Below, piece after piece: positions 1-64,000 of a stretch of DNA of 64,000 bases. Under the pieces are notes generated by a model, which ran no database searches, had not been told where the DNA came from, and saw only the letters and a program-made list of their open reading frames with translations. Source of the DNA: Euglena gracilis (Eukaryota); NCBI GenBank assembly GCA_039621445.1, contig CP154954.1, positions 39,983,572-40,047,571 on the forward strand. Direction: 5' to 3'. The stretch's first letter is position 1; the number at the start of each line of letters is the position of its first letter. Both the position numbers and the translations under genes were made by a program.

Positions 1-2292
1 GGTGCGTGTGTGCGTGGGGCCCATTTTGTCAAAACCTCAGACCAGGGTTTGCTGTAGGGTGTCATGGCTTCGGTTTTGCCGCTACCACCCCTGACTGCAG
101 GGAGGATGCCCATCACCCCACCCACCTGCCAAGGGAAGGTGTCCAGACCGACCCCAGAGGGGCCCCCAGAGCGTCGTAATTTTCTTTTTCGGCGCTCTGC
201 ACGGAAACTTTTTTTTGGCATTTTCGGCAAAATTTGTCCCAAAACGTGCCTGAAATAATGTTTTGGGTAGATTTGGGGTGACATTCCCCCATCCCTTCTC
301 GCCTGGCCAAAGTCAGTCTGTTTGGCCGCCCTGTTGTTCAGGTTGGGGATTGACCATTTTGCCCCGGGTGCTTGCGAATGGGGAGAAAACGGTGGAAATC
401 CTGTGAAAGAGTTGGTGTCCGTCTCCAAACGGTTTTAAACGTTGTAGGGGGCTCTCCCCACCCACCCACTCGCTGGGGCCCGGGGGACGGGGAACCCACT
501 CACTTTTCCCCGAAAATGGCCAAAAATCGCGAAAAATGCTAAAAATAGCACCTTTTTCAAAAACTTTCAGCGCCGAAACGTATAGCCAACCCCCCCCTGC
601 CAAGGGGGTCCAGCCAATGTGCCTGCATTTTTTCCAGCCAGGAGCTCCCAACCAGGCTGTGGACCCACCCTCAGGGTCCGCTGGGGAACACCCCGCTGTG
701 GACCAGCCCGGCAAAGACCGAGAAAAAAAGCCCTTGCGTTTTCTCCCTCATCCGTCCCCCCATTCTCAGGTGATAGGACATTTGCCTGCAAGGAGCTGTG
801 CCTGGCCCTGGGTGGCCGCAGTTGCATTTCTTCAAGCCCCCTGGGAATTGGGAAGGTCTTCCAGGTGTTCCCCAACAAGAAGGCGCAGTGTTTGCAGCCG
901 AAGGACGGTTGTCTTGAAGGTGTGGCAATGCTGCCGTCTTTGGAGTGGTTGTGTTCTAAAATGAGTCTTTTTTTAAAAAAAAGTGATGTAACCCCCCCTT
1001 TCCCCCCCCCCGTTTTTTGCCCCCACCCGGGGTTTTTTTTTACCCTTGGACCCTGGGGGGGGGTGGGGGGGGTGGGTCCCCCCCCCTCACCCGGGGGTGG
1101 GATATACTTTTTGGTGCCGAAAGTTTTTGAAAAGGTGCCATTCTTAGCATTTTTCGCGATTTTTTGGCCATTTTGGGGGGAAAGTGAGTGGGATCCCCCC
1201 TCCCCCACTCCTGGTCTTTTTTAAAAAAACCCCTGCCCCCAACCACCAAATTGTGATTTATGACTCCCCCGAAGGAAAAAAAAAAGGCAAAAAATGCTGA
1301 GGAATCAAAAGGCAAAAATGTGCCAAAATTGCTGTGCCGAGAAAAAACAGGTGTGGGGTAGCCTGGCACTGAGGGGTTTTGGCAAAATCCCGTGAAATTG
1401 CCCAAAATATTTTGTTTTTTACCCCTCTGGTGCACAAGTCAGGGGTATTTTTGGGACGGCTTTTTTGGCCACACACCAAACCTCGACTTATAACCCCCCC
1501 TCCCCGCTTTGGACCGACGAAGAAAGTTAGTGGGGGATTCAGATTTCCTAAAATGTCCAAAACAGCGGTTGTAGTATTTTTTTTTATTTTGTTTGTATAC
1601 TGTTTGTTTTCCCCCCTCCCCCATCCGGCATTCTTGTGTTTCCGGAGGCGCTGATTTTGGGCCAAGCTTTTGTTTTGGCGCGGACGGAATTTTTCTTGTC
1701 CGCGGTCCCAACTCACTCACTTTTCCCCGAAAATGGTCAAAAATCAGGAAAAATGCTTAAAATAGCACCTTTTTCAAAAAATTTCGGCGCCGAAAAGTAT
1801 ATCCACCCCCCCCCTGCCAAGGGACCAGCCGGCAAAGGCCGAGAAAAGAAACCTCATACCCTTGCATTCTCTCCCTCATCCATCCCCCCATTCTCAGGTG
1901 ACAGCCGAGAGGACAGCCATGTGTGGGTGTGGCACCCAGATCTGCTGGCCATGGGGAGATGGATGGAATTACGTTGTTTTTTTAAATGACGGCGGCAGCG
2001 GCACCATGCAATGCCCAGATGGCCTGGCCATGTGGTGGGTGGTGAGGGTGCGGTGTGGTGCGGTATGGGTGTGGGGTGGGTGTTGTTGCCGAGTGCCAAT
2101 GTGCGAGCAGAGCAGAGTTTAATAACCATTTTTGGGATTCAATCCCCCCAACCCCAAGCCCTCCGATTGAGTGACCCCCATGATCATCTTGTTGTGGTCA
2201 ATATGGCCCCCTCTGACGTTGCCTTTGGTTTTGGCTTTGATGACCAGAGCTGCTGACAGCCACCTGGGCCAGGGCTGGGCTTTTGGATTGCC

Positions 2293-3427: not shown

Positions 3428-6400
3428 TTCCAGCACAGCCCTGCCAAAGTCCAGAAAAGCCCATTTTTTGGCTTTTTTGGCCCATCATTGTGGACCCCCC
3501 CTCCCCAGGTAGGGCAGAACGGTAATCGGCCGAACAGCCAGGGTGGTGGGGTGGGGGGGGGGTCGTCCCCCCCCCACCCCCTGTTCCCGTATTTCCAGCA
3601 GCACCAATTTTTGGACCCGAAAAAAATTTTCCGGCGCCGGGTGTTTTTTTTTTACCCATTTGGGACCCATATGGGGGGTCCCCCCAAAAACCACCCAAAA
3701 CCCCATTTTTTCACACCTTCCAAAAATTCACCATTTTCTCAAAATGTTGATTTTGAGAGGTTTTTGAAGCAAAAAAATGCCGTTGAAAGTCCAAAAAATT
3801 TCAAAGAGAAAAAATGTCAGTAAAATTTGATTGTGCCAAAATTTGGTCCACTTTTTTTGACCTTTGCTTTTCTCACCCCCCTCCTAAAAACTACCAATTT
3901 TCAACCCTGAAATTTTTGAGATTTTTTTTGTGAAAAAGTGTGGTTTTCCATCAAAAATCATGTGTTTTGGGTTCATTTTTCAAAAAAAATTCAAAATTTT
4001 TTCTGGCCAAAATCCCCATTTCCCCGAAATCAGTGAAAATGCTGTGGAGGTGAGGGGGGGTCGACCCCCCCCACCAGGCCTTCCCGTTCTGCCCAGGGCA
4101 CCCCAAGCCCCCCCCCCCCCCCCCGGTTGGTTGAATTCATCCTGATTGCCAATGCTTTATGCCCCAAAGGTCCAAAAAAAACGTTGCTGTTGTCGTTGTC
4201 GTTGTTGTTGTTGCTGTTGCTGCTGTATCATAACGCCGCACGCATTTTTGTTAAAAAATGATAATACAAATGAAATAAAAGTGAAAGTTGATATAATCAA
4301 CAAATGATGAAAGGTATCTTCAATGTGAAATATTGTCTATTGCCCCAAACTTTGATCAGGGCAAGTGCTGAATTGAACCTTGTGTAATAAAGCAAGTGCA
4401 TGGAAGAAGTATAATGTATTTTTGGAGGGTTCCAGGTTCTCAGGAAAGGTGTTGGCTCGATGCTTGAAAGTTTTGGGGAACCGCCAACAACTTTTGCAAA
4501 TTTTTCCAGCTGGACACCAGGGTTTTTTTGTCTTGGACTCCTCGGCGGGGGGTTGGTCCAGCCGAGCCCCCCCCCCCCTTCAGGGGGAGGAGTGGGGTAT
4601 ATTTTTCGGTGCCAGGGGTGGGTGGGTGCCCCCGGGCTTAAAAAAAACCCTGCTGGACACCTACCGGAAGTTGCCCCAACGGAAAGCCGTTCGCACTGCA
4701 ATTTTGTCGCCACAGTTGCACACTGGCACAATTTTCTCTGTCCAAACAGAGGCGGAGCTTTTAGATCCATATTTTATCCCAAATGAGAGTTGGATCACCC
4801 CCCTGATTTTTTGATTTTTTTTCTGCGGGTGTTCGCATTCAAAAGTTGGCATTCAAGAAGGATTCAAGTAGGGGGCCCTTGCTTTTTAAAGAAAAGAATT
4901 CATTTAAATTTCTATTTCACAGAATCCGGAGAAAGGGTTAGCATTACCTCGAGTGAAAACGGCGGAATCGTGGCCACCAGTGACCCTGCGAATTTTGACC
5001 AGACCATGGCTGGGGGGGGGGGGGGAGGTTCGTCGGCCGACTAGGCTTGGTCGGCGAGACGGGCATGGCGTGGGGGGGGGAATCGGCCGACCAACGGGCC
5101 AAGTTCGGAAACTTTTTAAACCCTCCTCTTTGAACAATTCCTGAGCAGAATTCCTGACCAAAATCAAAATTGGGCCAAATGGTCACCCTGCGCAAGTGTG
5201 GTCACCCATAGATGAGAAATGCACGGCCAATTTTGGCAAAGCACCTCGGGTAGTTACCAATGGCAGTGCTTTGTTTCTCAGGGGTAAGAAAACCAGTAGC
5301 CCAACCGAACCCACCCGGGCCTCAGCTCGGGTTTCCCAAAGAAACAAACGATGCTAACCCCCCCAAAAAAATTACACCATCCCTACCTGTGGCAAAAAAA
5401 AATCGGGCAAAATTTCGCCCCCCCACCTTTAATTCATCAAAGGCGCGCTTAGTCGACCCGCGGCCTCCTCCAGGGGGGTGGCCACCGCCCCCCCCCCCCG
5501 CACCCCCTCAAATAACAAAATCCTTTTATGCTGGCAAACTTCTTTGGAGAGGGGCTGCTTTTTTTTCAGCGGGGTCATTTTGATGGGGTTTTCCGAAAAG
5601 GTAATTTTTTGACCCAACCAGGCTTTTTTTTTGGTTTTGGACCCCTGGGGGGGTAGGGTCGATCCACACCCATCCAGAACCCCCCTGTCTCATCCCCCCC
5701 CAAAGGTCTGCCCACGCCAATGCTGAATCCCCCGTTGGAGCCCGGGGGCGGGGCAGGGACCCCCTGTTCACTTGCGAAGTGCATTGCGGGGTCCCGAAGT
5801 GTACTCCTAGCCTCCATTGCCCCCCCACAGTCGGGAAATTAAAATCGTGGGATGGTCTAGGGAAACAAAATAAACCCCCCCCCCAAATAATAAACCCCCC
5901 CGGTTTATTATTTGGACACCCGAAGTCGGGGTCCAGGGGGGGGTTTATTATTTGGGGGGTTTTATTATTTGGGCAAAATTTTCGAAGTCAAAAATTGACC
6001 CGAAAACCCCTCCACAGGCTCCAATGGTCACTTTTTTGGCATTTTTGGGCTTTTTTGAAAATTGGTTGCTTTTTTTTGGCATATTTTCTGCACCAATTTG
6101 ATCCATTTTTGTGTTTTTTTTTGCAGCATTTCTGCTAATTTTTTACTCTTTTTTCCTTTGCCCTCACACCTGCCAGAGGGGGGGGTTTATTATTTGGGCG
6201 GCCGAAGTCGGTCCTCAGGGGGGGGTTTATTATTTGGGGGGGGGGTTAGTGGGACACCCCCAAAAAATTCCATCACCCGGAGTTGGTTGGTCCGGCCGAG
6301 CCCCCCACCCGGGGGGGGGGGGGGGGGGGATATACGTTTCGGCACCGAAAGTTTTTGAAAAAGGTTCCATCCAGCATTTTTCACGATTTTTTTTGGCCAT

Positions 6401-20179: not shown

Positions 20180-43130
<22,951 letters not shown>

Positions 43131-44477: not shown

Positions 44478-44508
<31 letters not shown>

Positions 44509-44779: not shown

Positions 44780-44813
<34 letters not shown>

Positions 44814-45613: not shown

Positions 45614-45644
<31 letters not shown>

Positions 45645-47803
45645 CATGCATACGTACATACATACATACATACATACGTACATACATACATACATGCATG
45701 CATGCATACATACATACATACATACATGCATGCATGCATGCATGCATACATACATACACACATACATACATACATACATACATACATACATACATACATA
45801 CATACATACATACATACATACATACATGCATACATACATACATACATACATACATACATACATACATACATACATACATACATGCATACATACATACATA
45901 CATACATACATACATACATACATACATACATACATACATACATGCATACATACATACATACATACATACATACATACATACATACATACATACATGCATA
46001 CATACATACATACATGCATACATACATACATACATACATACATACGTACATACATACATACATGCATGCATGCATACATACATACATACATACATGCATG
46101 CATGCATGCATCATACATACATACATACATACATACATACATACATACATACATACATACATACATACATACATACATACATACATACATGCATACATAC
46201 ATACATACATACATACATACATACATACATACATACATACATACATACATGCATACATACAGACATACATACATACATACATACATACATACATACATAC
46301 ATACATGCATGCATACATACATACATACATACATACATACATACATACATACATACATACATACATACATACATACATACATACATACATACATACATAC
46401 ATACATGCATACATACATGCATACATACATACATACATGCATACATACATACATACAGACAGACAGACAGACATACATACATACATACAGACAGACATAC
46501 ATACATACATACATACATACATACATACATACATGCATACATACATACATACAGACAGACAGACATACATACATACATACAGACAGACAACATACATACA
46601 TACATACATACATACATACATACATACATGCATACATACAGACATACATACATACATACATACATACATACATACATACATACATACATACATGCATGCA
46701 TACATACATACATACATACATACATACATACATACATACATACATACATACATACATACATACATACATACATACATACATGCATGCATGCATACATACA
46801 TACATACATACATACATACATACATACATACATACACATACATACATACATACATACATACATACATACATACATACATACATACATACATACATACATG
46901 CATACATACATGCATACATACATACATACATGCATACATACATACATACAGACAGACAGACAGACATACATACATACATACAGACAGACAACATACATAC
47001 ATACATACATACATACATACATGCATACATACATACATACATACATACATACATACATACATACATACAGACATACATACATACATACATACATACGTAC
47101 ATACATACATACATACATACATACATTCAGGCATACATACATACATACATACATACATACATACATACATACATACATACATACATACATACATACATAC
47201 ATACATACATACATACATGCATACATACATACACACATACATACATACGTACATACATACATACATACATACATACATACATACATGCATGCATGCATGC
47301 ATACATACATACATACATACATACATACATACATACATACATACATACATGCATACATACATACATACATGCATACATACATACATACATACATACATAC
47401 ATACATACATACATACATACATACATACATACATACATACATACATACATACATACATACATGCATACATACATACATACATACATACATACATACATGC
47501 ATACATGCATACATACATACATACATACATACATACAGACAGACAGACAGACAGACATACATACATACAGACAGACAGACAACATACATACATACAGACA
47601 GACAGACATACATACATACACACATACATACATACATACATACATACATACATACATACATACATACATACATACATACATACATACATACATACATACA
47701 TGCATACATACATACATACATACATACATACATACATACATGCATACATACATACATACATACATACATACATACATACATACATACATACATACATACA
47801 TTC

Positions 47804-47834
<31 letters not shown>

Positions 47835-49500
47835 CATGCATACGTACATACATACATACATACATACGTACATACATACATACATGCATGCATGCATACA
47901 TACATACATACATACATGCATGCATGCATGCATGCATACATACATACACACATACATACATACATACATACATACATACATACATACATACATACATACA
48001 TACATACATACATACATACATACATACATACATACATACATACATACATACATACATACATACATACATGCATACATACATACATACATACATACATACA
48101 TACATACATACATACATACATACATACATACATACATACATACATACATACATACATACATACATACATACATACATGCATACATACATACATACATGCA
48201 TACATACATACATACATACATACATACGTACATACATACATACATGCATGCATGCATACATACATACATACATACATGCATGCATGCATGCATGCATACA
48301 TACATACATACATACATACATACATACATACATACATACATACATACATACATACATACATACATACATACATACATACATACATACATGCATACATACA
48401 TACATACATACATACATACATACATACATACATACATACATACATACATACATACATGCATACATACAGACATACATACATACATACATACATACATACA
48501 TACATACATACATGCATGCATACATACATACATACATACATACATACATACATACATACATACATACATACATACATACATACATACATACATACATACA
48601 TACATACATACATACATACATGCATACATACATGCATACATACATACATACATGCATACATACATACATACAGACAGACAGACAGACATACATACATACA
48701 TACAGACAGACAACATACATACATACATACATACATACATACATACATGCATACATACATACATACAGACAGACAGACATACATACATACATACAGACAG
48801 ACAACATACATACATACATACATACATACATACATACATACATGCATACATACAGACATACATACATACATACATACATACATACATACATACATACATA
48901 CATACATACATGCATGCATACATACATACATACATACATACATACATACATACATACATACATACATACATACATACATACATACATACATACATACATA
49001 CATACATACATGCATGCATGCATACATACATACATACATACATACATACATACATACATACATACATACATACATACATACATACATACATACATACATA
49101 CATACATACATACATACATACATACATACATACATACATACATACATGCATACATACATGCATACATACATACATACATGCATACATACATACATACAGA
49201 CAGACAGACAGACATACATACATACATACAGACAGACAACATACATACATACATACATACATACATACATGCATACATACATACATACATACATACATAC
49301 ATACATACATACATACATACAGACATACATACATACATACATACATACGTACATACATACATACATACATACATACATTCAGGCATACATACATACATAC
49401 ATACATACATACATACATACATACATACATACATACATACATACATACATACATACATACATACATACATACATACATACATACAGACAGACAGACATAC
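44091..49500. repeat. 5.4-kb (TACA)n microsatellite with TGCA/GACA variants
   Basis: Direct reading. Confidence 0.98.
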
Positions 49501-49687
49501 ATATATATGGAAATATGTGTCCACGACAAATTGGGGTTTCATTCGAATGACTTTCAAGGGGGTCACGCCGGGGGAAGTGGATGCATGGCCAGGGCCGGGG
49601 CCCGAGGCAGGGGAGCCGGGGGGCAGCCCAGGGGGACCGAAAGGCGGGCCGCGGGGCCCGGGCAAGGGCAGGGCCCCGCCTTTGGCG

Positions 49688-49718
<31 letters not shown>

Positions 49719-51409
49719 TGTGTGTGTATTGTGGGTGTGTGCGTTGTGTGTGTGTATTGTGGGTGTGTGCGTTGTGTGTGCGTCGTAAGAGAGAGAGGGA
49801 ACTCTCCTGTGTGTTTTAGTGTTTGTGTCAGGGATTTTTTTTAAGACCGGTGGGAGGGGGGTCCCCAACCCACCCACCCCTTGTCCTGGGGGACCCACCT
49901 AATTTCCCCCGAAAATGGCCAAAAAAGTGCGGAAATGCTAAAAAATAGCACCTTTTCAAAAATTTTCGGTGCCTTCGGCGCCAAGAAGTAAATCCCCCCT
50001 GGGGGGACCCGGGGGGGGGGGGGGGGGGGGCTCGGCCGGACCCTCCCCCCCTACCACCCCTTCCCCCCAGGGGTTCAAGACTAAAAAAAAAACCCTGGTT
50101 TGTTTATGTGATGTGTGCGTCTGTTGTGTGAGGGAGAGGGAACATTTATGTGTGCATGTTTGAATGTTTGTGTGTTTGTGTGTGCATGTTGTGTGTGTTG
50201 TGTGCGAGAGGAAGAGTTTGTGTGCGTATTTAAATACGCCCACTCTGTGGTTTGTCTTCTTGCAGTTGTTTGCTTGAACATTTGTGGACGTTTGTGTGCA
50301 GATGTGCGTGCATGGATGTGCCCCAGGCACCACCGCCCATACCCCACACCCCCAACGACAGCCTGGAGGGGTGGGCCCGGGCGTCACCCTGGGCTCACCA
50401 CGCCCCATGCCCATCCCTTTGCCGCCGGGTGGCGGGGGCCGCCCGGGGAGGGCCGAGGTCGGCCGACATCGGGTCACGGGCGGCGGGGCATGCGCGGGGC
50501 GGGGCGGCAGCCGGGCTGCGTCACATATGCGGCCGGGGAGGGCGGCGCGGCCTGAGGGGGGGGAACCGGAACTGTATGAATTCCCCCATCTGCCCCCTTT
50601 TTTTGCAACCCGGAAGCACCAGGGAGGAACAACACCCGTGTTGTCTGAAAAAAATGCTCACCGAAAAAAATGCTCACTATTGGACTTTCTTTTGGCCGAA
50701 AGATCAGGCTGACGGTGGGCTCCACCCGTCTGAAACTCCTTCCCCTCCCAGAGTGTCAGGGGGAGGGAGAGGCAAGGCATATTTCTTTATTAGGTGTTGA
50801 AAACCATAAAAAGCCTTCAAGATGCCTGAAAATGCCTTGAATTGTCTTAAAATGCCTAACAATTTGGAAGGTGCCCTCGTCCTTGGCCGCAGGGGGGGGG
50901 TCCAACAACAAAGAACCAAAACATGCAAAATTATCTTGTAACGAGGGAGGACTCTGACAGAAGGGAAAGGGGATTCTGGGGCGTGTCGCGGGCTGCGTCG
51001 TGCGGTGGAGGAGGACCGGCACAGCGTCCGATGGGCGTGTGAAGGGGGCCGTCGGCCTGACCACGCCGGCCGCGGGACTTACGGCTGTGGCGGATGGGCC
51101 TGCCGGGGTGGCTGAGTGCTGGGCCACCAGTGGAGGAGGCTGGGGCAGGGGGGGAGGGCCGGTGGACCGCCGGGGGCTAGTCGGTGGCAGGGGGGGATGA
51201 GCCAGCCCCCAGGAATCCCGGTGGTGTCTCCGACAACGCCCCCAAATCCCGCCAGGGAGGGAATGCAACTTCATGGGTCGAAGTTCGATGGCCGATGCTC
51301 TGGGGCGGCAAAGCAGCCTGTTCATTTTTGCACTGCACGTGAAGGAGAATGCTGCCATGCAGCTGCTGATTGGCAGACCCCCCTCCCCTGTCCGCCCCGC
51401 GTCCCATCC

Positions 51410-53106
51410 CCCGCTGGCGGCGGGCGCCGAGCAGGCGCTGGCTGAAGTCGAAGCTGGCGAACTGGATGGCGTTGGCAAGCACCTTGGACGTCAGCCGGGG
51501 CCCCATCCCGGACAGCAGCACTGGCCACCCGTCGGCCCGCAGGGCCCCCTGGCTTGGCGGTTGGCCCGTGGGACAGGTGGGCCAAGGTGCTGCCTGGAGA
51601 CTGGACCTGCGACCCCTGGGGAGTTGGGATCCGGGGGGGGGGGGTTCCGGCTGGCTGGCAGCTGGACCCGGCTGGTTGCCAAAAACATGCAAAAAAAGAC
51701 CAAATCCAGCAGGTTGGGATTTTTTTTGGCAAAAAATACAAATGTGAAAACAAAAAAAGCTCAATTGTTGGCCATTTGACCATCCTCTCGCAAAATTCTT
51801 AGCTTTGCGCTTTGTATATTTTTTTTTTCATTTCAGCCCAGCGCGACTGCCCCCAACTTTGCATCAGCGGCCCTGGGAGCTGCTGCCTGGAAAACGTTGT
51901 CGACTGGCGACCACCCACGCAACGCCCTGCAGCCGGCCCTGGCCCTCGCGGACCGTCTTGACGGCGCAGTCCAGGGCGGAGCTGTACCGCCGCTGGTCGG
52001 CCTCCGCCATCAGGCGGGTCCCGGCAGGGCCGGCCCCCTCGGGCTCGGGGACACACACTACGGGGGACGGCTGCTGGTCCAGCCCGGGGGAGAGGGGGAT
52101 GCCCGGGGTTGGGGGGTGGAACTGGCAGTCCAGACAAAATGGACAGGGAGGAAAATGGACAAACAGGGTCATCCGGGGGCTTCCGCCGGGTGTTGTTGGC
52201 GGCTTCGCATCTCAAAAAGGACAAAAAAAAACTCCTCCAAAAGGGCGTTGGAAATGCAGGGGGGGATGTGACCATTCGGACAAATGGCTGGTCCCCCATT
52301 GTTTTTACTTTCTGTGTTTGCCCAACCACGAAAGTTCCGCCAGCTGCGGCCGAGGCAGCCAAATGGGCTCGTTGATCCCGCGCTTTTCTCAATTCCAGTG
52401 GAGCGCGGGCGTGGATGCAGCAAGTCCAGGTTTTGGCTACCAGAATACTGATTGGAATGTTTGTGTGGATTAAAATGGGGTCGATCCACCGGACTGCAGC
52501 CAATCATTGCTCCTTGGCCGGGGGGGGGGGGGGGGAGGGTTGCTTTCTGCTATCCAAAAAAAAAGGCCAGTCAGTCACTTTCAAAAACCAGCCACCCACT
52601 CCCCCCATTGTGGTCGTGGGGTGGTCATCAATCGGGTCAAAAATGGCCTAAAATAAATGGATATTGGCCAAAAAGCCCCCATTTTTTTCCAGGTCCTTAA
52701 GCGTCGGGTAGCCACTTCGGATTTCTGGCCAACCCCACCCAATTGGGGGTCCGGGCCACCAGTCAGTCACAAAACAAAACCGGTCAGTCAGGTCGGACGC
52801 ACCTTAAACAATGGCATGGTTCCGACACTGATAACCCAGACCACAACACCACAGCCCCAACAAGAGATTTCTTAAAGACCAGAGGAGGGGCCCACCCACC
52901 AACCCAGGGGGCACCCTCACCCCCCTCTGAGGGGAAGCGGGATCCGGATGCTCTCTTTTTTTGGGGGGGGGTCAATTTTGGGGTAAAAAAAAAGAAGAAA
53001 AAAGGGCCAAAAAACGGCTGCAGGTCCAAAGTTGAAAAAAAATCCCTGACCCCAACCTAGCCACGCTGTGCGTGATGTGTGATGTGTGACGTGTGTGATG
53101 TGTGTG

Positions 53107-53149
<43 letters not shown>

Positions 53150-56100
53150 TGTGTGTTGCATGCGCGCGTGTGTGTGTTGTGTGTTGTGTGTGTGTGTGTT
53201 TGTGTGTGTGTTGTGTGTGTGTGTTGTGTGTGTTGTGTGTGTTGTGTGTGTTGTGTGTGTTGTGTGTGCACGTGTGTTGTGGGGGCAGAAAATGCCACGG
53301 AGGTGGGCCCTGGGCCGGATCACGTCCAGCGGGGTGGTCACGAGCGCCGCGGTCATCCCCGCCACGCCTCCGAACACAGCCGACTCCACCGGGGAGAGGG
53401 GCCCCCGCGGCACTGCCCTGTCACCCCAGGCGGGATCTGGGTTGGGTTTGCCCCACCGTCTTCCAACACACGGGCACAATTCTCTCCGTCCCAAACAAAG
53501 GCGGGTTCCACAATTTCCCGATGGAGAGTTGGATCGTTCAACCTGATTTAGGCGTCGTCCATGTGCGAAGCCATTCAACGGGTGGGGTTCTGGCGGGCCG
53601 CGCACTGGGACCCACCAACCAACTTGTCAGAGGGGACCCAAAGGTCCCGTTCCATATTCCGCATGCTTTCCGCTGAGAGCATGGGCCTCCAGCCCGAGCA
53701 CCAGCAGACCTGCCCGGAGGGAGCAACCCCGTTTGTAAGATAATATAATAATGTAAGATACCGCAAGATAATAATAAGATGGCAGCTCCCATAAAGTTGG
53801 GAGCTGCCATCTGTTGGGGGGGGGCATATAGTGGATCAGGGGGGAGGGGTCGTATGGTGGGCCAAATCCGACTTTTCGACGTTCGGTCCCGCGGCGTCGG
53901 GGAACCACGCGGTGCCGGATTCGGGGAGGGTGGGCATTCAATTTTAGGGATAGGGTTAGGGGGTAGGACCGTCGCGCCGAAAATTGGCAGGGTAGGGACC
54001 AAGTTAGGCCAGAAGTTAGGACTTGCTTTGGGAAGAAGAAGAAGATTTCGTTTTGGGAAGAAGATTTTTGAATCACCTGTTTGCCCCAGAAATGCCCGAA
54101 ACCGACCTGAATTCCCCCAAAATCCGTCCGCAATGCGGCCTAACTTCTCCCCAACTTTCGAAAAAGGGGAGCCCAACGGGAAACCAGTCGTAACCCCCAC
54201 CCTATCCCAATCCATAACCCCGACTTTCCCCGAAAGGTCGGACCTGGGTCCCACCATACGACCCCCCCCCTGATTCGACTATATGGTCCTCCCGGGGGGG
54301 GGGGGGCATGTAGCTGGGAGCAGCCAGTCAGATAATGAGGTAATAAGAAACATAAAACACAGAAAAAACATGCAGATATTTAACAGAATATAAATATGTT
54401 TAAAAGAATAAATGTGACCAAAATAAGATAGAAATTGCCCAAAGACTAATGACGAAGAAGAGATTCCTCATGGATCAATGAACACTCCAACCGGATCTCC
54501 CTTCAGGCAACTTCCCCAGTTGTTGGGCTCTGTTTTGGATAAAATCTGATCCCCACCCAAAGTTTGAATTACCCGATTGCACAAAGCGACTTTGATCTTC
54601 ACATTTTCTCCGTAAGTTTTGCTTCTGGATGTGTGTAATAATTGCCAAAAAAACCAGTTCCACCGCACCAACAGTTTCCTTACGCCCTCACACGCTGGGC
54701 GATCCTGGATTGCGAAAAGGATTGAAAACGAGGCAGCGCCGCGGTTGGATGCCCGGGTGCAGGGAGGCTTTGATGGTGTCGAGGGCAGGCGGGCTGCTTG
54801 TGACGGGGAGGGAAGACAGGCTGGGAAGCGGAGGACCCCGGCGGTGGGCCCCAAATGGTGCAACAGGCAATCCTTTGGGAATGTTTCTCCCGGCAAAACC
54901 AAGCACTGCCTCTAGCCTCAAATTTGCCTTCTTTAAGTTATTTACCTCCCAGCGTTGGCCTGGAAAGTGGACCCTCATTTTTCTCACTTCTTTTTTTTCC
55001 CGAACAATGGCCCTCAGGGGATTTGTATCTGCTCCATGCAGCCTTCACACGACCGTGGTTGGAGGGGTTCCCACAGCAACGGGCCCGGCCATAGACCAGG
55101 AACTTGACGACGTCGGCGGGGAAGGCGTAGAGGAGGTTCGCCCCGTACCCGACGTACAGCGCGCCGACGCCGCCCTCCCGGACCACACGGCCGATCTCTG
55201 CCACGGAGTCCTCCGCTGTACCGGCCTGAGGGGAGGAGTGGGCCAGGCCCTGCCATTGCCATCTGGCCATGGGTGGGTGGGTGTGGGGGAGGGCGGGAGC
55301 AGGGTTTTTTTTTTAAGTCCAGGGGAGAGGGGGGGCGTCCCCCCTACCCACCCACCCCCTGGGGCCCCCAGGGGGGGGGGGACCCACTCAATTTCCCCCC
55401 CAAAATGGCCAAAAATCGCGAAAATGCTAAAAAATGGCACCTTTTTCAAAAATTTTGGTGCCTTCGGCACCGAAAAGTATATCCCCCTGGGGGGACCTGG
55501 GGGGCGGGAGAAATACAACTGCCCAGTAAGCCATGAAGACCTCCGCTCGAGATTGGAAAGCCATCAATATCCAAAAAATAAAATATCCAAAAAAAAGCTA
55601 ATGTGGATCTGCTCGCAGCGTCCTCACAGGGGAACACTGTGCTGCCCCCAATAGACAGCGGATCCTTTTCTCTGAGTTGCTGAAGATCCTAAAACAGGGT
55701 CTATTTTCTGGGGGGGTTCTGCGGAATTTTTTTTGCTTAAAGTTTTGAGAAAGGTCTTCCTGCAGGAAGATCCAAAAATAGGCACAAATACACAGAATTT
55801 TCACAATGAACAATAAATTCACAATGTCACAAAAATTGTCAATTTCAACACAACTTCCACTTCGATTTTGTTTTAGAATTCAGTTTTTCTTTAAAAATAC
55901 CCTCTTGGTTGGTGCATTTACAAAACCTCAAGGTGGACGAGGATTTTGCGATTTTTTTTTGAGATTTTGCGGCGGATTCCTGTGCCGATTATTGGCAAAA
56001 ATCCAAAAGACGATCCTCAAAGTTACTGACAAGTGACACCTCCCTCCGAATTGTTGGGAAAGAATCCAAAAAAGGGGCGCCGGTTCATTTCTTAAGCCCC

Positions 56101-59100
56101 CCAGCCAGAAGAGAGAAAGAGAGGGCAGACACCTGGCGGCGGGTCTTCAACACCTCCGATGGGGTCTTGACCAGCCACGTCGGGATGAGGGCGCCTCCCA
56201 CCGCGAGGACCGTCACCAGCTGCTTGTTGTCCAGCCCGACGTCGGACCGCAACACGTCACTCGCCAGGGTGCCCGCAGCAGCCTCTGGTATTCCCATTGC
56301 CGGCCGGGTTCGCGTGCCTGCTCTGGCCTGCGATCGCACAAACGTTTATGGAGAGACACTGAGGTAGGCAACTTTTTGGGACCGGAGTTCCACAGGAAGC
56401 TGCTGGCCCTTTGAACCAAAGAACACTGACGACGCGGGGGTGCCAGCGAGGAGGTTGCGGTGGGGCCCGCTCAACTGGCTTAGGGGGCGGTTGGGCAGGG
56501 GAACAAAGTGCCACACATATGTGACGAGTCGGCGAGGAACGTTTGTCATTGGTCTGACTTGTCTTCGCCGAATTGGCCCCAACGGTATATGGACCCCCAC
56601 CCCCAAGAAGGAGGGACCGTTTGGCTTCAGAAAACCCCTGCGTGGGGAAGTCTTAGGAGGCATAAACTGCCCATGATAAAATTGACCAGGCGCATTGGAA
56701 ATCGACCCAAAAATAGCAACAAAAAACCCCCAAATTTTTTAGGTGCCAGAGTTGACTTGAAAGTTTTGGAGGTTTTTTGACGGTGTAGGAGGGGAAGCGG
56801 GAATCCGCTTCCTTTTTGGGGGGGAAGCGAAAAAACGCTTCACCCTGAACTTTTTGAAATAGCTAAAAGTGCACATATTTTTTGAATTTTGACATCGGCG
56901 GAAGCGGATTACCGCTTCCTGTGAAACTTTTTATGGGGAAGCGGTTATCCGCTTCCTCCACTTCACATCACAACAAGTAGGCACCTTTAGAACTGGCATC
57001 AACCTCATCAACATAAGACATCATCCAACGTCTTTACTACATTAAAACAATTGTCACCAAAAGAAGCCTTATGACAGCAATCATCTGCTGGAAAGCACAA
57101 AGCAGGGGAAGCGTGTTTCCGCTTCCTATGGGTGGGCCAGATAAAGTAGTTGCATGTGGGGAGCAGGTTCGGCGATGGCCGTTCTCGCCCTATGCCACTG
57201 GGGGACTTATATTGGCGACGACTTCAGTGCCCATCTACTGTTGTCTAACCCCTGGGTCAGTTATGGCTTCACGAGAGGTCTCCGGCGGCTGAATGGTGAC
57301 TGCCTGAACTGTGCTTGAAATGTGCCTGGACTCGGTCTGATTGTTGTGGTGCCATCTCGGATGGTTCTGGGAGCGGATGGGTGGTGGGTTTACATGGCTT
57401 ACAAGCAGCGTGTTTAGAATTGATTGGGGAACGGAGGCAAAAAGGCCTCTGTCCAGGGATTTTGGTGATGACTTTGAGTGGGCTGTTTTGCTGTGGGTTG
57501 CTGGACACCGTGTTTTGAGGCTCCTTTGAGGACGAAAGTTGCCGGGTATGGATTAGTTTGCATGAGGCTGACACTCTGTCTGCAGCACAACGTGTTTCCA
57601 CCAGGCTGAAAGCCAACGGAGTTGTCTTGTTCAAGAAGGGAGGCAGCATAGAGCTGGACAATGGGTCAGGCACAATTGAGGGGGCTGAGGATCACTAAAG
57701 ATTGGAACCAATCTCCTTAAACCCTGTGAAACCGTTTTCCAGGTCCATTCAGTGCTTAAACACAGCGTCCTGGAATAGGTTCTGTCATTGGGATGTGAAG
57801 GTGTCCCCAAATACCTGGTGTGCGCGGGGGGTGGGAGTGATGTGCCAGAATCAAATTGTTGAATGCACCTGGAATTATGCCAGCAGTGGAATCCGATGAA
57901 CACTTCACACAAAAGTTGGAATGAAGCGGAAACCAGCTTCGTCAGGGAGGAAGCGTAATCCCGCTTCCTCCCTATGCGGGAAGCGGTTTTGCGCTTTCTC
58001 TTTGGAATGTGGCCCCCTCCTACCCACAGGTGGTTGAGGCAGCATAAACAGGACGTGCAGAGACTGATAAGGCTGGCTGTGTGTCTCTGTGAGCCTTCTG
58101 GGAGTATGGTGAGTGTGCAGTTCACCAAGTCATGTGCTGCCGAGAGCCATCGGTAGGCCTTGAGGACAAAGACAGCCCTCCGGAGCCCCTCTCCTGACCA
58201 GTAACTGCCGGGGGTGGGCCATAAACATGGCCTGGGAGGAACAAATGGACGAAACCTCACAGATAAGACCCACCTGCCTGCGCTTTGGCCGGGGAAGAAA
58301 GAACTTGAGGGGGGGTTTGAGACGCAATTCCACATAGCTGGATATTTTTGGGGGGCTTTGCATTGTATCTCAAGTTGAAAGGGGGCCTGTTTAAAGGGGA
58401 AATGGCCCAGATTTTTTGATTTTCAGCAAAATGTCTGGTACTCCACTTCCAGCCTTCACTGTGCCTTGTTTTCTTTCCCTGGCACCAGAAATCAACCCAC
58501 CGAAGAAACAGATACACAGTTGACAATGGAAAAGGGAGGACACTTGCCTCCATTCACTTGAAACCACCGTCTTCCTTCACCTTCTGGGTCCCCATCCCAC
58601 GTCTCCTTTCTCCTTGACCCCTTCTGGGCTGTCATTTGCTTGCGAACACCAAAGATGTCCTCTGGAATGGACTGCCACAGGTAAAGCCCAACACCACCTT
58701 CAAGCTGCGTACACTGATCTCCTCTCATTCTCATTTCTAGGTGCGTCATCTCATGTGCGCTGCTCCTCTCAACGACCTTGCTCAAAACCAACCATCACCA
58801 CACCCCTCTGCAATGCGCACCAAGCCACTTCTGCCCTTGTCTCCTCCTGCTGCAGGAACTGCTCTGCAACCTCTGCAGGATTCCCAGGGATGAAGAAGCC
58901 CCAAAGAAACCAACGGAAACACGTTTCAGGTTATTCTGGAAAACACAAATGAAGCGGATTTGCGCTTCCTCGTTCAACCCTGGGGCAAGTCCTCCAACCG
59001 GCTGTTGCTGTTGCTGTCCCTGTGTGCGGCAGGCAATCACCTCCTCATCGTACACCCTGAATCCTCCATCAGTTCACGGAAGCGGCTTTCCGCTTCCTTG

Positions 59101-61408
59101 AATCAAACCTTGACGTCTAAGGCCACTCCCCATGTTTGTCTCAGGAAAGAGGAGGCACTCTCCGAACCACATGGTAAGCCGTGTCACAATGCTGCATCCC
59201 AGCTCGTTATTGAACCCACAAAGTACTTCAGACCTATCACGTTTGGCTGAAAACCGTCCCAGACGGCCCTCCCCCCCGATTCAGTTCCGGTGCCGTTAAT
59301 CAATTGTCACAATGCCCCACACCGTGCACAATGACTGCACTCGTTGGGAGGGTAAAATGCATCCCCTGTGAAAGTGCACAGCTGCGGGTCTTCCAGGGAC
59401 CAAACAAGATGGCTGCTGTGGGAACACTAACGCATGCAGGTGGCTTTCCATGTCCCGCAATACAATTGGGCCAAATCAAAGCATGTCGTTGACAACCAGG
59501 TTTCCCATATAACGGCTTTATACCTCCTGCCCCCCTCCCCATGCATTTGTACATCATTTTGCAAGGTCCTATCCGGACCAGTTGGGCATGTTCTACGACT
59601 CGAGAAGATGAAGGTTCCATCACAGCACAAGCTAAGCCTTTGTCCACTCACCAACACCCGAAACTCCATCACATACGGCCTAGGTTGAATTGTGTATGTG
59701 CCAGATGTGGGCTGCGGGTTCCGACTTCATCTCCCCCTTGTTTTCATGCTCCTTCAGACCACTCAGGCCTTCGAAGTCATGGCCTTGAAAAATTCAAATC
59801 GTCAGGAGGAAGCGTGATTCCGCTTCCTCCTGGCCACTATGAAAATTTCAGGGGGTTTCTGCTGTATGCATCCTCAGAACCTGCGCCTGCCCCTCATTTC
59901 CGCTGATTGGCGTCAATTAAGGAAGCGGTTTTTGGTAATCACCGCTTCCTCTTCTCCTCTCTGTCCTCGTGAGGCCCCATTTTGGGTCATTTTGCGTTTC
60001 GGCGCCTCGGAGTGCAGTAGAACTGGGCAGTGACGAAGCGGTTTTTCGCTTCATCTGAAAATTTTGTGCACTTTTCGCCGATTTCGGCTTGCACTCAAAA
60101 ATTTATACCCCTTTTCGCTCATTTCAGCCTCCTATAGAGGTTCGTTACTCCAAGCCAAAACACCGGCAGAAACGGCCCAAATACGGCCTCTTCCAAGAAA
60201 AGCTAAAAATTTTGGGGGTTCAGACGAAGCGTTTTTCCGCTTCCTCCTCTTCCACTTTCCGCTTCAAACCGTCCAAAATTGTTGGGCAGTTTATGCCTCC
60301 TAAGGAAGTGGGCCTGGGTGTCAGAGCAGGCCCCAAACCGGCACGATGCCGGCATACAGGTCGCGGTAGAGCTCCGGGTCGGTCAGGACCATGCCACTGC
60401 TCACCGACCCCCCCTCCCCGCCACAGGGGGGGGGAGGGGTCACTCCCTGGCCACTTGGGCCAAAATGGCTCAAATCGAAGCTGCCGAGAACTTTTGTGAT
60501 TGACTAGTTTTGGAAGAATGTGAATGACCCCCATCCCCCCCAGGCCCTGGGGAACAATGGATTTTGGCCAAAGCCCCCCTCCAAAAATTTCCTGCGCCTT
60601 CGACGATGGGGGGGGGGCAGGGGTGGCTGGAGCCAAAATCAGTCAGTCACCTCCAGGGCGGGGGGGGGGGGGGGTCGGACACACCGAAAGCAACGGTATG
60701 GTCAGGACGCGGGGGGTGCGGGCCACCTCCAGCCGGCAGCGGATCGTGTCCAGCGGGAAGAGGATGACCTTCTTCGCGATGGACACCGTGGCGCCGCCCG
60801 CCATGCCCAGGGCCGCACGGGAAGGCCGGGTGGGCTGGGGGTGAGTGGTCAACTACGCCCCCCCCCCCCCGCCTGGGAGGGGGGGAGTGGGACCCCCAAG
60901 GAAAAAATTATTAGGGGCCTGAGGAATTTATTATATAAATTGGCATTCCAGAAATACGAGAAGACTTAATTGGGGGGACCCCTCCTTCCAGTCCAGCACG
61001 TAGGAAAATTCTGACTTTGGGGGGGGGTTGGGTCCCCCGGGGTCAGTCTGGACCCTCCTTGGCAGACGAGGGGGTGGTCTGGACCCCCCTCCCCCTGTGG
61101 TGCAGGAGGGGGGGGTGGGGGACACCCCCCTTCTCGACCCCGCACACCCTCCTTATGTCAAGCCATGGGGTCCCCCCCACCCCCCCACCCCCCACCCCGT
61201 AGGGCTTCGGGCAGTCCCGCACAGCCCTGGCCATGCCCCTCGCCGCACTCTGCAGCTGGGCGTTGAGGCCCGGGCTGCGGAGAGGGGCCCGGTGGGGGGG
61301 GCGGGGCGAGGCCCGGCGATGCTTCGCGACACGCCAAACGACTTCCGGACACTTGCACCGGCGTTGCTTGGCGTCCGGCCTGTCCCCGGGCCAAGACACG
61401 GATTCCAT
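51410..61408 (-). CDS. Multi-exon mitochondrial carrier family (SLC25) gene, most like S-adenosylmethionine carriers; ends uncertain
   Basis: Three carrier repeats with Px[DE]xx[KR]xR: FPLDTIRCR (60685-60802), TPSEVLKTR (56133-56284), TPLDVIR|TRL (53316-about 53416 joined to 51945-52020). Other exons: LYRDLYAGIVP (about 60339-60380), LLAGTPASSVFFG (about 56408-56456), REGGVGALYVGYG...KFLVY (about 55090-55225), DGWPVLLSGMGPRL...QFASFD (about 51410-51533). N-terminal exon 61233-about 61408; possible small exon about 53670-53711. Subfamily call is by motif resemblance only. Confidence 0.88.
51534..51944 (-). other. Non-conventional intron
   Basis: Splits KTVRE/DGWPVLLSG. CAGGGCC/GGCCCTG stem. 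The 3' junction could be 3 nt further in. Confidence 0.72.
52021..53315 (-). other. Non-conventional intron
   Basis: Splits PLDVIR/TRLM. No GT-AG available. CAGGGCC/GGCCCTG stem at the ends; the exact junction can slide 1-2 nt. Confidence 0.8.
53831..54279. mobile_element. Second, satellite-free member of the 24725-26102 TIR family
   Basis: TATA|GTGGATCAGG..GGGTCGTATGGTGGG and CCCACCATACGACCC..TGATTCGAC|TATA. Internal motifs shared with the first copy (AAGTTAGGCC, AACTTTCGAAAAA.GGGAGCCC.ACGGGA, CCCAATCCA). Confidence 0.75.
55226..56132 (-). other. Canonical GT-AG intron (carrier gene)
   Basis: CAG|GTGTCT...CTCCCCTCAG|GCC, phase 0, joins KTRRQ/AGTAED. Confidence 0.85.
56652..60304. mobile_element. 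3.65-kb TIR DNA transposon with degenerate coding region, inside a carrier-gene intron; superfamily unassigned
   Basis: Perfect 22-bp TIR CTTAGGAGGCATAAACTGCCCA (56652-56673 and 60283-60304). Flanking direct repeat GAAGT (56647-56651, 60305-60309). Broken minus-strand ORFs including ETWDGD. Confidence 0.85.
60803..61232 (-). other. Non-conventional (euglenid-type) intron with TIR-like stem and perfect 8-bp direct repeat
   Basis: Minus strand: GGCAT|GGC-CAGGGCTGTGCGGGA...TCCCGTGCGGCCCTG-GGCAT|GGC. CAG at +4, CTG at -8. Removal gives in-frame ARGMAGGATV. Confidence 0.85.
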
Positions 61409-64000
61409 CACGAACCCCAACACTCAACCCCCCCCCCCCAAACTTTAGCAACCCGTTCCTTAAATCCAGGTTTCAGCCAATCCGCCCCAATGGGTTGCTT
61501 AAATTTTGGGGTTTGCTCTAATTTGGGCTTCAGTCTCCGCGCCGAGGCACAGCTTAAACTCAGACCAAAACTTGTTCAAAGGAAGGGAGGAGGAGGTAGT
61601 TTCTTCAGAGTATGCAAACTGTATACAACAACATAACAGCGTCCCAAAAAAAACAACGGTGCAGACTCAACAAGTTTGATTAATTTCCCAAAAATTCGGC
61701 TATTGTTGTGAGCTTGCGTCGCTTTCATATATTCCTTCATTTCCCCTTCTTTTTACCTCAAGCTTGCTCAAATTTGGAATTTTCACTGATCCCGGGGGGG
61801 GGGGGGGTTGCTTAAATTATGTTGCTAAATTTGGGGGGGTTAAAGGGACTGGGGGCGAGCTCCCACAGGCAAGCACAAAATGTGTGCGCATTGAAATGAA
61901 ACTATGCAACACACACAAATGGTGTGCTATTTCAGGCGTTCATGACACACAATAGAAAGGGCCAGAACCTGTGCATCCTTGGGTTGCTGTGATATTTTCA
62001 ACCAGGGGGGGGGGTTGAGCTCTTGTATTTTTTCATATTTTTATATTTTATTCTTTGGCAACTTTGGCAATAACTTGGACATTTTTGTTCGCCAAAAAAA
62101 ATGTTCCTACTTGAAATTTTATTGAAAAGCGGTGGGACTTGAAAAAATGACTTGAAAATGCATTGGAAACATGAAAGAAATTGGCCCCAGGCACACTTGG
62201 GGAGGGGGCTTCATATTGGGGGAGTGGGAAAATAAAAAAAATTGTTCCCTCGACGTTACTTGTAAAAAATCTCAGACACAGTCGCATTAAACTCAGATTG
62301 AATGCTGCCAAAATGAAAGCAGGCCAACCCTGACACCCAGGGTTGTATGAGAAAGCCTGGGGGGGGGGTTCGGACAACCCCAACCAGAGAGTTTTTTAAC
62401 CCCGGGGGGGAGGGGTCCAGCTCAGAGGCTGGAAAATTTGGGCTGGCTGGAAAAAGGTTGTTGGCTCCGACCTGGGGTCCAACATCTCAAAAATGCCCCA
62501 AAAATGCCAATCATGCAAAAATCGATTTTTGACCCCAAATTTGTCCTGGCCAGCCCTTTTCCGACCTTTTCTTCCTCTGCTACGCCCTGGCCCCAACCCC
62601 ATCCTGGTGGGTTGGGGCCAGGGCGTAGCTAGCTTAGGAAGATTTGACCCCCCCCAGGGGGTCCAGCCAGCCAGCAGCCTTTTCCATCCCGGGACCCCCC
62701 TCCCCCCCTCAACGAAGTGTATTTAATTCCAACCGCCCGAACAATAACGGATTTTTCGCCTTAAGGGTGCAAAACCGGCCAAAAATATAGGGTTTTCAGG
62801 CTTCCCGTACAGTCTTAGGCGGCGCGAATTGCCCAACCGATTTTTGCGTTTTTTGGCGTTTTTTGGCTGTTTTGAAAACACCTAAAAGGGCCAAAGATTT
62901 GAGCTGAGAGGGGTGTGTGGCGGCTTTGGGCCAAAATTTAACAGAAGTGGTTTTGCGCGGTATTCCGCTTAGTCGATTTCCGATTGCGTGTGAGTTGTGT
63001 GATTTGGGAGTGTACTAGAACTGTTTGAAATGGCTCGAAAAACACCGACTTTGAACAGGTGTGACATGGGGCTGTGTGTCCATGGTTTATGTTAATAACA
63101 GTATTTGAGAGACGAGTGAACAATACAAGTGTGTGCGGATAACCGCGTAAAACGAAACAAGAGGTGACAAACAGCGGAGTTAAACGGTTGGGCGGTAATC
63201 CGCGCACAATGCACTTGTACGCGGATTACCACGTACAAGTGCAAACAAAGCATGGTGCGCGGATTACCGCGTACCATAACACAACCAGTTGATGACTGGT
63301 GGGAGGGAATCCGCCTGGTATGTGTGCATAGGTGTTGAGTGTAAGGCGACTGGGTGTAAGCGGGAATCCGTGTGGCCGGGTTAAGGGTGAGCAGAAAAAG
63401 CACAGCATTTGTGGACGATGGGATGGGGGGGGGAGATGGAAACCACCCTAGAAATGAAGTCTGCTGGTTTGTTGGCAAAGTTTTGCAACCCTACTTGTGA
63501 CACCAGTCACAGGCGTGAATCTTTGCAAAGGACACGGACGACAGACTTTGTTGCCAGGTCGCCAGGCAGTTTGCAACTGAATGGCGTCTGGCGTGTTGTG
63601 GTGAGTTTGAGGGGTGAAGGTTTATGGAAACCAGGGAGAGGAGATTGAATCAGCAGGGGTTGACCAACCGAGGAGAGACGGCCAGCCCTTAAACTTGGGC
63701 ACTCAGAGCAGGGGTGGTTTCCAAAAGGACCGGACACGCCTGTGCTGAGGGTGGTTACATGGATGGAAGCCAGATGTACCGGGCCAAACATCGACCCGGC
63801 GTTGGTTGAGAACGACCGCCTTCTCGTTTACCCCCCCTCCCACACGGCTTCTGACGGTGGAGACCACCGTTGCCTCCTCCGGAGGCATGTTGCCGACCCC
63901 AAAGGAAGAAGAGCCAGAAAAAAAGAGGTGGTTTGGGCATTTTGCCTGAAATTCAGCAAAAACTGCAGCTTTTCAAAGGAAAAATGCTGTAACACTGTTT

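Follow-up and report, generated by a model that had tools for sequence, protein, structure and literature searches.

An intron of a Euglena gracilis carrier gene with the build of an inserted DNA element and its 8-bp target duplication

The nonconventional introns of euglenids are removed under a splicing code that reads N3-CAG...CTG-N5|purine, given also as CDG / CH'G with spacers N3 and N5-6 (Nomura et al. 2025). They make up 71.8% of all introns of E. agilis, in which 649,158 junctions are annotated, and their origin and removal are posed as questions by the field. An origin from MITEs has been proposed since 2013 and, along with 'TSD-like' repeats, is already in print; an earlier note on the present DNA had mentioned the proposed transposon origin. 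Intron 4 of gapC in E. agilis ACOI 323 carries eight-nucleotide direct repeats at its junctions and is absent in other strains, hence recent; its authors attribute it to double-strand-break repair and not to transposition (Milanowski et al. 2016). The introner elements of Micromonas, Aureococcus and dinoflagellates and the noncanonical, transposon-derived introns of Fritillaria and Amoebophrya start out as short DNA transposons, non-autonomous and with inverted ends, that duplicate 3-5 nt of their target and turn into introns on insertion. The duplication supplies part of the splice geometry, and removal is by the spliceosome, in some cases a modified one.

MITEs of the hAT superfamily combine an 8-bp target duplication with short inverted ends (10-25 bp). 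These ends follow the consensus YARNG, and CAGGG is the start of the inverted end of maize Ac/Ds; 8-bp duplications are also made by the P, Merlin and some Mutator superfamilies. A Ds element has reportedly created an intron in maize (Giroux et al. 1994). The spliceosome removes Ds through cryptic sites, and a scar stays behind. In the searches made, we found no link in the literature between nonconventional introns and hAT, a transposase or an 8-bp TSD rule, and looking for the Ac end motif in article text brought up nothing but unrelated primer lists.

We analysed 64 kb of Euglena gracilis DNA (the window), which holds an SLC25A26-like mitochondrial-carrier gene whose sense strand is the minus strand. 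Intron 1 of this gene is probably a euglenid-type nonconventional intron born of the insertion of a short, non-coding, inverted-end DNA element into a coding exon, with 8 bp of the target duplicated, and we predict that it is spliced without a scar (Table 1). Compared with euglenid nonconventional introns as described (Milanowski et al. 2014, 2016; Nomura et al. 2025), it shares non-GT-AG borders in the predicted functional register, CAG/CTG, the terminal helix and the 3- and 5-nt spacers, and shows no structural difference; it is unusual only in its cleanness (a perfect 8-/9-bp repeat and a 15-bp helix), and its splicing is predicted. It resembles gapC intron 4 in the eight-nucleotide repeats, but that intron is proven recent, whereas the youth that the earlier note saw in intron 1 is conjectural. 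With the introners and the Fritillaria and Amoebophrya introns it would share the derivation from an inverted-end element and the contribution of the duplication to splice geometry, whereas here the duplication is 8 bp and the code is the Euglena nonconventional one. In contrast to the maize Ds introns, we propose scarless removal.

Table 1. Positions of the features of the carrier gene, of intron 1 and of CAGGG-ended and MITE-like elements in the window.
Feature	Position	Strand	Details
Exon 1, coding part, ATG 61408 to junction	61233..61408	-	arginine-rich N-terminal extension; inferred start codon
Intron 1, nonconventional, published register	60803..61232	-	430 nt; frame restored on removal, published code, fold
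Inserted element of intron 1, CAGGG to CCCTG	60808..61229	-	422 bp
Upstream repeat copy, sense GGCATGGC	61230..61237	-	coding, end of exon 1; extends one base to 61238
Downstream repeat copy of intron 1	60800..60807	-	published register: 5 bases intronic, 3 exonic
5' arm of transcript terminal helix, inverted end TCCCGCACAGCCCTG	61215..61229	-	sequence, script, fold
3' arm of transcript terminal helix, inverted end CAGGGCCGCACGGGA	60808..60822	-	sequence, script, fold
Exon 2, first carrier helix and P-x-D-x-x-R-x-R-type signature	60704..60802	-	68% identity to P0001, PF00153
Intron 2	60385..60703	-	319 nt; junction from gapless alignment to P0001
Intron 4, stem-to-stem span (CAGCAGC...GCTGCTG)	56276..56405	-	P0001-based junction; N3 + N5; flank identity 2/8
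Intron 7, stem-to-stem span (CAGGGCC...GGCCCTG)	52025..53312	-	RNA; repeat 2 nt, spacer total 7, flank identity 3/8
Intron 8, stem-to-stem span (CAGGGCC...GGGCCCTG)	51540..51941	-	P0001-based junction; N3 + N6 fits best; flank identity 2/8
MITE-like element A, ends CAGGGTTTTTTT / AAAAAAACCCTG (12/12)	4518..4652		135 bp; flanked by the perfect 8-bp repeat CTGGACAC
MITE family G, reference copy, CAGGG/CCCTG ends	49829..50097		269 bp; flanks 7/8
MITE family G, copy	38463..38768		306 bp; flanks 6/8
MITE family G, copy with CGGGG as mutated end	1028..1235		flanks 7/8
MITE family G, copy within conventional intron 5 of carrier gene, one end truncated	55300..55502		G-rich 8-mer GGCGGGAG on both sides, ambiguous
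Element with perfect 11-bp inverted end CAGGGCGTGGT	40494..42867		2374 bp; flanks 6/8

A script check of the sequence found the direct repeat GCCATGCC and the inverted ends next to it exactly where the earlier note had placed them, and extended the repeat: bases 60808 and 61238 are both C, which makes it 9 bp exact. Since what is duplicated is coding sequence of the target, the repeat is an insertion scar. At the DNA level the ends are complementary at 12/15 positions, and the three mismatches are all transitions. Full pairing on the transcript with G-U allowed, another claim of that note, holds for the minus strand (12 Watson-Crick and 3 G-U pairs), where the plus strand would give A-C. When the minus-strand RNA is folded, the terminal 15-bp helix appears in the MFE structure as well as in the centroid (z = -2.27), and one of 100 shuffles folds equally well. 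In size (422 bp), lack of coding content, 15-nt ends (12/15) and 8/8 flanks, the element has the structure by which MITEs are defined; the 8-bp flanking repeat and the length of the ends are as in hAT MITEs, and the ends start CAGGG as in maize Ac/Ds and conform to the YARNG-type consensus.

The published code also fits. On the sense strand the intron borders read N3 = GGC followed by CAG (+4 to +6), and CTG (-8 to -6), complementary to that CAG, followed by N5 = GGCAT, with the downstream exon beginning in G. Both junctions fall on a pyrimidine|purine step (T|G), and the next exon starts GGC, with a purine first and C at position 3. Spacers of N3 and N5 take out the element plus exactly 8 nt, and the mRNA is identical whichever register within the repeat is used. 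Removal of these 430 nt (422 + 8) brings ATG 61408 into frame with the carrier motif, as the earlier note had proposed for excision with one repeat copy. Its proposal of a euglenid-type intron is supported by the CAG and CTG positions and the helix in the fold.

We propose that a short non-coding element with inverted ends would have entered a coding exon of the carrier gene, with 8 bp of the target duplicated. In the transcript the inverted ends would pair in the 15-bp helix and draw the exon ends together, and the nonconventional splicing machinery of Euglena would then cut three nucleotides before CAG and five after CTG. As 3 + 5 = 8, the element and exactly one copy of the duplication would be removed, and the frame from before the insertion would be regained without a scar. 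Three parts of this account, namely RNA cutting at intron 1, a duplication made by a transposase and a transposase of the hAT kind, are what we infer. The locus offers an unusually clean case for viewing an insertion scar and inverted ends side by side with the cut positions that experiments have defined for the code.

The stretch might instead leave the RNA through a cryptic GT/GC-AG pair inside it, or stay there as a transposon that simply disrupts the gene's 5' region, with translation starting at the ATG in the downstream repeat copy. The assertion that no GT-AG pair fits proved too strong: 28 donors and 5 acceptors give 24 in-frame GT/GC...AG combinations, which use the acceptors 60852 and 60834, and before the latter lies a C-rich tract with CAG at its end, a type reported for conventional Euglena introns. 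Yet every alternative adds residues that P0001 is without (for example, 14 extra residues with GT 61222 / AG 60834). Directly ahead of the first carrier helix, an ATG lies within the downstream repeat copy and could give a shorter protein from unspliced RNA. Against this, the exon 1 residues before the repeat (LQSAAR) match P0001 (LDALAR) at 3/6 positions, and the read-through residues (PSRAAL) at 1/6, and intron 1 agrees with all published rules for nonconventional introns.

RNA coverage of the region is thin. Mapping on 53290-63999 (two RNA read runs, one DNA contig run and one run of uncertain kind) gave an RNA depth of 1-7x in the carrier-gene exons and about 1-3 reads over exons 1-2. The very low depth over exon 1 would suit a stretch that is not removed, but the RNA bin over intron 1 contains little besides low-complexity reads. 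The intron 1 junction is absent among the 15 joints listed of 180, those all from DNA contigs. DNA-contig depth reaches 5299 over 60787-61143, compared with about 55-95 for single copy, a value inseparable from poly-G/C matches. A protein search with exon 2 yielded P0001 as the single match among 21 candidates of the 'longer' lengths (Pfam PF00153; source name S-adenosylmethionine transporter), and found no transcript-derived protein proving the exon 1-2 join. Taken together, we regard retention or cryptic splicing of the stretch as unlikely. The leaf-litter metatranscriptome run X20 contains 0.17 of the sampled words, which is no evidence of habitat.

The next intron of the gene has the same build as intron 1, and this supports an insertion origin. 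Intron 2 contains an element (60390-60700) with inverted ends CAT.../...ATG (11 pairs with one mismatch), flanked on both sides by GTCAGGAC (60382-60389 and 60701-60708), a perfect 8-bp repeat that one further G extends to 9 bp, and the intron's fold has z = -4.43. It starts CATGC, which does not match a YARNG-type end. Nonconventional splicing is active in the carrier gene: in eight RNA reads of X23 the alignment stops at 53315 (agreement 1), and their loose end maps to 51990-52019. This places the junction of intron 7, the one nonconventional junction in the gene that RNA shows.

The remaining introns temper the idea that the 3- and 5-nt spacers together are one target duplication. Among the six nonconventional-looking introns of the carrier gene, flank identity is 8/8 in two and 1-3/8 in four, and the spacer totals that could be placed among the latter are 8, 7 and 9; the 8-bp rule is therefore visible in only two of the six. 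The idea put forward in the earlier note fits intron 1, where the code removes the element plus 8 nt, but four of the six introns show no repeat.

CAGGG-ended elements flanked by 8-bp repeats, which the note had expected elsewhere in the genome, are present within the window as well, so that the same 64 kb holds free elements with an 8-bp scar. Across its non-coding CAGGG-ended elements, 8-bp flank identity is 8/8, 7/8, 7/8, 6/8 and 6/8. No coding context was seen for the perfectly flanked 135-bp element. One family G copy (1028..1235) shares flanking DNA with a copy near 6289-6464, and the two are therefore not independent insertions.

We asked how often such repeats arise by chance in the window. 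Pairs of CAGGG...CCCTG 40-3000 bp apart with arms of at least 10/15 numbered 138, and their flanking 8-mers were at least 7/8 identical in three (permutation mean 0.093; 0/2000 permutations reach 3) and at least 6/8 identical in five (mean 1.1, P = 0.004). Controls with flanks displaced by 8-32 nt or with the motif order reversed never had more than one pair that reached 7/8. Outside masked simple repeats, the abutting register showed a repeat exact at 8/8 for 3 of 4265 CA...TG pairs (intron 1, intron 2 and a MITE), compared with 0-2 in each of 16 shifted registers (mean 0.4). The repeat could in principle say nothing about origin, if intron 1 were an old nonconventional intron of the ordinary sort with a junction 'slidable' by chance, given that short direct repeats are reported at the junctions of 84.4% of E. 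agilis introns and that the case was picked by a reader out of 64 kb. These permutation and register results, and the second 8/8 case in the adjoining intron, speak against chance, which we consider very improbable.

An unbiased scan for exact 8-bp repeats with adjacent inverted 12-mers gave 67 matches, mostly within simple repeats (block-shuffle mean 3.0). We rejected those at 14075 and 15891, which lie inside retroelement ORFs, those at 21559 and 21657, which are parts of one long palindrome, and that at 36979, which was without support.

The search for further copies, suggested as a check in the earlier note, produced no second copy of the 422-bp element within the window: BLAST returned the element itself, homopolymers and one internal match (94 nt, 76.6%, at 29740-29831), which tiled alignment widened to 61001-61185 versus 29739-29908 at about 72%, with ends not in common. 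Membership of introns 1 and 2 in a local MITE family was rejected, with scores barely above those of mononucleotide shuffles and alignments made of poly-C/G runs. In public metagenome contigs, a 23-nt core of that family was matched exactly at three loci, all of them unrelated chance matches. A Pfam search of 20 ORFs, picked from the 229 window ORFs of at least 110 aa, found no DNA transposase domain (BED and hATC included) and matched RVT_1 twice and, weakly, Phage_integrase, as in a DIRS-like retroelement. An Rfam search of the window gave no match. The label of a hAT-like insertion thus keeps its 8-bp duplication and insertion scar but gains no transposase domain, and no autonomous partner, from these 20 ORFs.

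The absence of another copy in the window and of a transposase in the 20 ORFs would also suit an intron gained without transposase, through staggered double-strand-break repair with filler DNA, its inverted ends kept since only insertions that fit the code survive in an exon. Milanowski et al. (2016) explain in this way the 8-nt repeats of the recent gapC intron, which we also count as support for an insertion origin. Filler of random sequence would, however, seldom include a 15-nt inverted repeat with its start right at the duplication; the equal 8-bp spacing at non-coding CAGGG-ended repeated elements arose without selection for splicing; and the adjacent introns 1 and 2 are both of one build. 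We therefore see break repair as a rather improbable source of intron 1, and favour insertion of an inverted-end element.

More speculatively, the Euglena nonconventional code as a whole may be the image of one transposon superfamily. CAG and CTG would be hAT-like tips and the 3- and 5-nt spacers the halves of an 8-bp duplication, so that the same pyrimidine|purine step stands at both junctions and any such insertion is erased from the mRNA without a scar; old introns would have lost the intronic halves of the duplication. We hold this reading only tentatively and think it doubtful as it stands, but if true it would account for the large share of nonconventional introns in E. agilis. MITE origin and TSD-like repeats were already in print; the equation of 3 + 5 with one hAT-like 8-bp duplication, which our searches did not find in the literature, is offered as a testable hypothesis. 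Means for such a test already exist in the junction annotation of E. agilis and in the knock-in assay that Nomura et al. describe. Should it hold genome-wide, the splicing code would be tied to one class of DNA transposon; should it fail, intron 1 would merely be a well-preserved example of the origin proposed since 2013.

Two minor observations concern conventional introns. A GT-AG intron has its 3' end after a C-rich run, which, along with the RNA-supported CAG/CTG junction of intron 7, points to a euglenid host. Intron 5 of the carrier gene holds a family G copy, at which DNA-contig depth is about 700 times that of single copy.

The stretch at 60808–61229 is most probably a nonconventional intron, the first in a minus-strand gene. 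On the minus strand, 60697–60816 translates into a mitochondrial carrier's first helix and signature, and the only relative found in a database search (P0001, 343 amino acids, 68% identity, Pfam PF00153) is annotated at source as an S-adenosylmethionine transporter of solute carrier family 25. With this protein, tblastn placed nine exon pieces between about 61420 and 51420. Cutting out 430 nt (the 422-bp element plus one 8-mer), the removal that the earlier note had proposed, makes the ATG at 61408 and the carrier motif share one frame. The repeat encodes G-M-A, so only the residues preceding it can discriminate: exon 1 ends in LQSAAR there, against LDALAR in P0001 (3/6 identical), and the read-through alternative gives PSRAAL (1/6). 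The claim that no GT–AG pair fits was too strong, as 28 donors and 5 acceptors allow 24 in-frame GT/GC…AG combinations; every one of them inserts residues that P0001 does not have.

Mapped RNA reads cover the exons at a depth of 1–7×, and the target junction is not among the 15 of 180 joints listed, all 15 from DNA contigs. Nonconventional splicing in this gene is proven at intron 7, where eight reads of the RNA run X23 stop at 53315 and 30 further letters map to 51990–52019. Introns 5 and 6 look conventional (GT–AG and probably GC–AG, respectively). At exonic positions 55199, 55220, 56160 and 56166, roughly half of the RNA reads show a different letter, the only one present in the DNA contigs of run X1, which points to two alleles or strains.

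Knock-in mutagenesis defined the signature 5'-N3-CDG…CH'G-N5–6|purine, with a 5' spacer of strictly 3 nt and a 3' spacer of 5 nt for which one more is tolerated and one fewer is weak (Nomura et al. 2025). Both junctions are described as pyrimidine|purine, with C at the third exon position (Milanowski et al. 2016). At 61232..60803, the target intron agrees with all published rules for nonconventional introns. The 3 + 5 spacer nucleotides amount to one 8-bp repeat, so excision takes out the element with a single repeat copy and is scarless in any register.

The 8-bp repeat GCCATGCC (60800–60807 and 61230–61237) was correctly described in letters and coordinates; the exact direct repeat is 9 bp, the following base being C in either copy. 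Directly inside the copies lie the inverted ends CAGGGCCGCACGGGA (60808–60822) and TCCCGCACAGCCCTG (61215–61229), complementary at 12 of 15 positions. Their three mismatches are transitions, reading as G-U on the minus strand (the sense strand here) and A-C on the plus strand. Full pairing with G-U allowed thus stands, as a 15-bp helix on minus-strand RNA, and this terminal helix is present in the minimum-energy and centroid structures (z = −2.27; a fold this good arises in 1 of 100 shuffles).

The repeat probably arose as the target duplication when a TIR element inserted. It copies codons of the host gene (G-M-A, opposite G-V-A in P0001) and therefore was not brought along by the intron. Intron 2 has the same build, with a perfect 8-bp repeat at 60382–60389 and 60701–60708, a fold that contains the helix (z = −4.43) and a junction gapless against P0001 by tblastn. 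The window also holds non-coding CAGGG-ended elements with 8-bp flanking repeats, as the earlier note's reading anticipated. Three of 138 CAGGG…CCCTG pairs have flanks at least 7/8 identical (permutation mean 0.093; 0 of 2,000 reach three), and among 4,265 CA…TG pairs there are three abutting exact 8/8 repeats, against 0–2 in sixteen shifted registers. The build of intron 2, the free elements and the flank statistics all point toward an insertion scar. The description of this copy as young goes beyond the data: at 3 differences per 30 nt of ends, zero changes across 8 unconstrained repeat bases are unremarkable.

Carrier introns and CAGGG-ended elements in the window
Feature	Position	Strand	Flank identity	Spacer total (nt)	G before left and C after right 8-mer	Remarks
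Intron 1 (target; element 60808–61229), published register	61232..60803	−			one side only	GGC-CAG…CTG-GGCAT; next exon starts GGC
Intron 2 element	60390–60700				one side only	Inverted ends CAT…/…ATG; 11 pairs, one mismatch, two G-U
Intron 3			1/8			Nonconventional-looking
Intron 4			2/8	8		Nonconventional-looking; junction from P0001
Intron 7	skipped between 53315 and 52019		3/8	7		Nonconventional-looking; starts CC-CAGGGCC, ends GGCCCTG-CCGGG; only RNA-defined junction (X23 reads)
Intron 8			2/8	9		Nonconventional-looking; junction from P0001
CAGGG…CCCTG element	4518–4652		8/8		both	Short; ends common to MITE family
MITE family copy	49829–50097		7/8
MITE family copy	1028–1235		7/8		both
MITE family copy	38463–38768		6/8		both
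CAGGG…CCCTG element	40494–42867		6/8		both	11-bp perfect end

The three MITE copies form one family with an incomplete copy at 55300–55502 and more fragments; at the incomplete copy, summed DNA-contig depth is about 65,000, versus about 55–95 for single-copy stretches. Four of six CAGGG-ended elements examined have the pattern g-N8-element-N8-c, a small count that suggests a palindromic target preference immediately outside the duplication.

An origin of nonconventional introns from MITEs was proposed in 2013, and a 2024 review draws CAG/CTG as inverted ends together with 'TSD-like' repeats. Short repeats are reported at 84.4% of E. agilis introns (Nomura et al. 2025). A strain-specific, hence recent, E. 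agilis gapC intron has eight-nucleotide repeats like those of the target, ascribed to double-strand-break repair (Milanowski et al. 2016). A full-text search over the main text of open-access papers returned no paper that names hAT or reads the 3 + 5 spacers as a single 8-bp duplication.

Membership of the element in hAT is doubtful. Ac/Ds ends begin with the same five bases as the element, CAGGG, and YARNG is the hAT end consensus. Papers describe hAT elements by an 8-bp duplication, ends of 10–25 bp and a BED + hATC transposase. None of 20 ORFs tested in the window has a DNA-transposase domain, the only matches being to a DIRS-like retroelement, and the 422-bp element occurs only once in the window. 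Introns 1 and 2 were considered as MITE family members; neither is recognisable as such. The 8-bp scar is seen in two of six nonconventional-looking carrier introns; decay of the intronic repeat halves could explain its absence from the others. That the 3 + 5 spacers generally represent one 8-bp duplication is an attractive, testable hypothesis of rather low probability.

Three carrier introns (51540–51941, 52025–53312 and 60808–61229) have the longer end CAGGGCC/GGCCCTG in common, and introns 4 and 8 the boundary strings GGGC-CAG and CTG-CGGGC, reflecting either a wider preferred code context in the species or related introns. The target's interior (61001–61185) is about 72% like 29739–29908, 31 kb off, and DNA contigs join 61089–61100-like to 62400–62426-like sequence; the intron thus contains a piece of a dispersed repeat.

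Elsewhere, a 5.4-kb (ATAC)n microsatellite at 44092–49507 (1,357 copies, 94% matches) accounts for a low-GC, strongly skewed stretch in the composition profile. The DIRS-like retroelement (13852–18286, minus strand) has a reverse transcriptase (RVT_1, E = 1e-13) and, after it, a weakly matched tyrosine recombinase (Phage_integrase, E = 4e-5, short of the Pfam cut-off); a further reverse-transcriptase fragment is on the opposite strand at 9334–10182 (plus). The long inverted repeat of about 1 kb at 21380–22415, with inner arms including CAGGGCCTATTCACA and TGTGAATAGGCCCTG (15/15), has outer flanks that are inverted too, making it a palindrome rather than an element with a direct duplication. 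Summed DNA-contig depths of 6e4–3e5, versus about 55–95 for single-copy sequence, mark 56503–60429 (in carrier intron 3) and 62215–63999 as dispersed repeats of very high copy number; the 11 ORFs tested within them gave no Pfam match, and many DNA contigs break at 62412 and 62455–62457.
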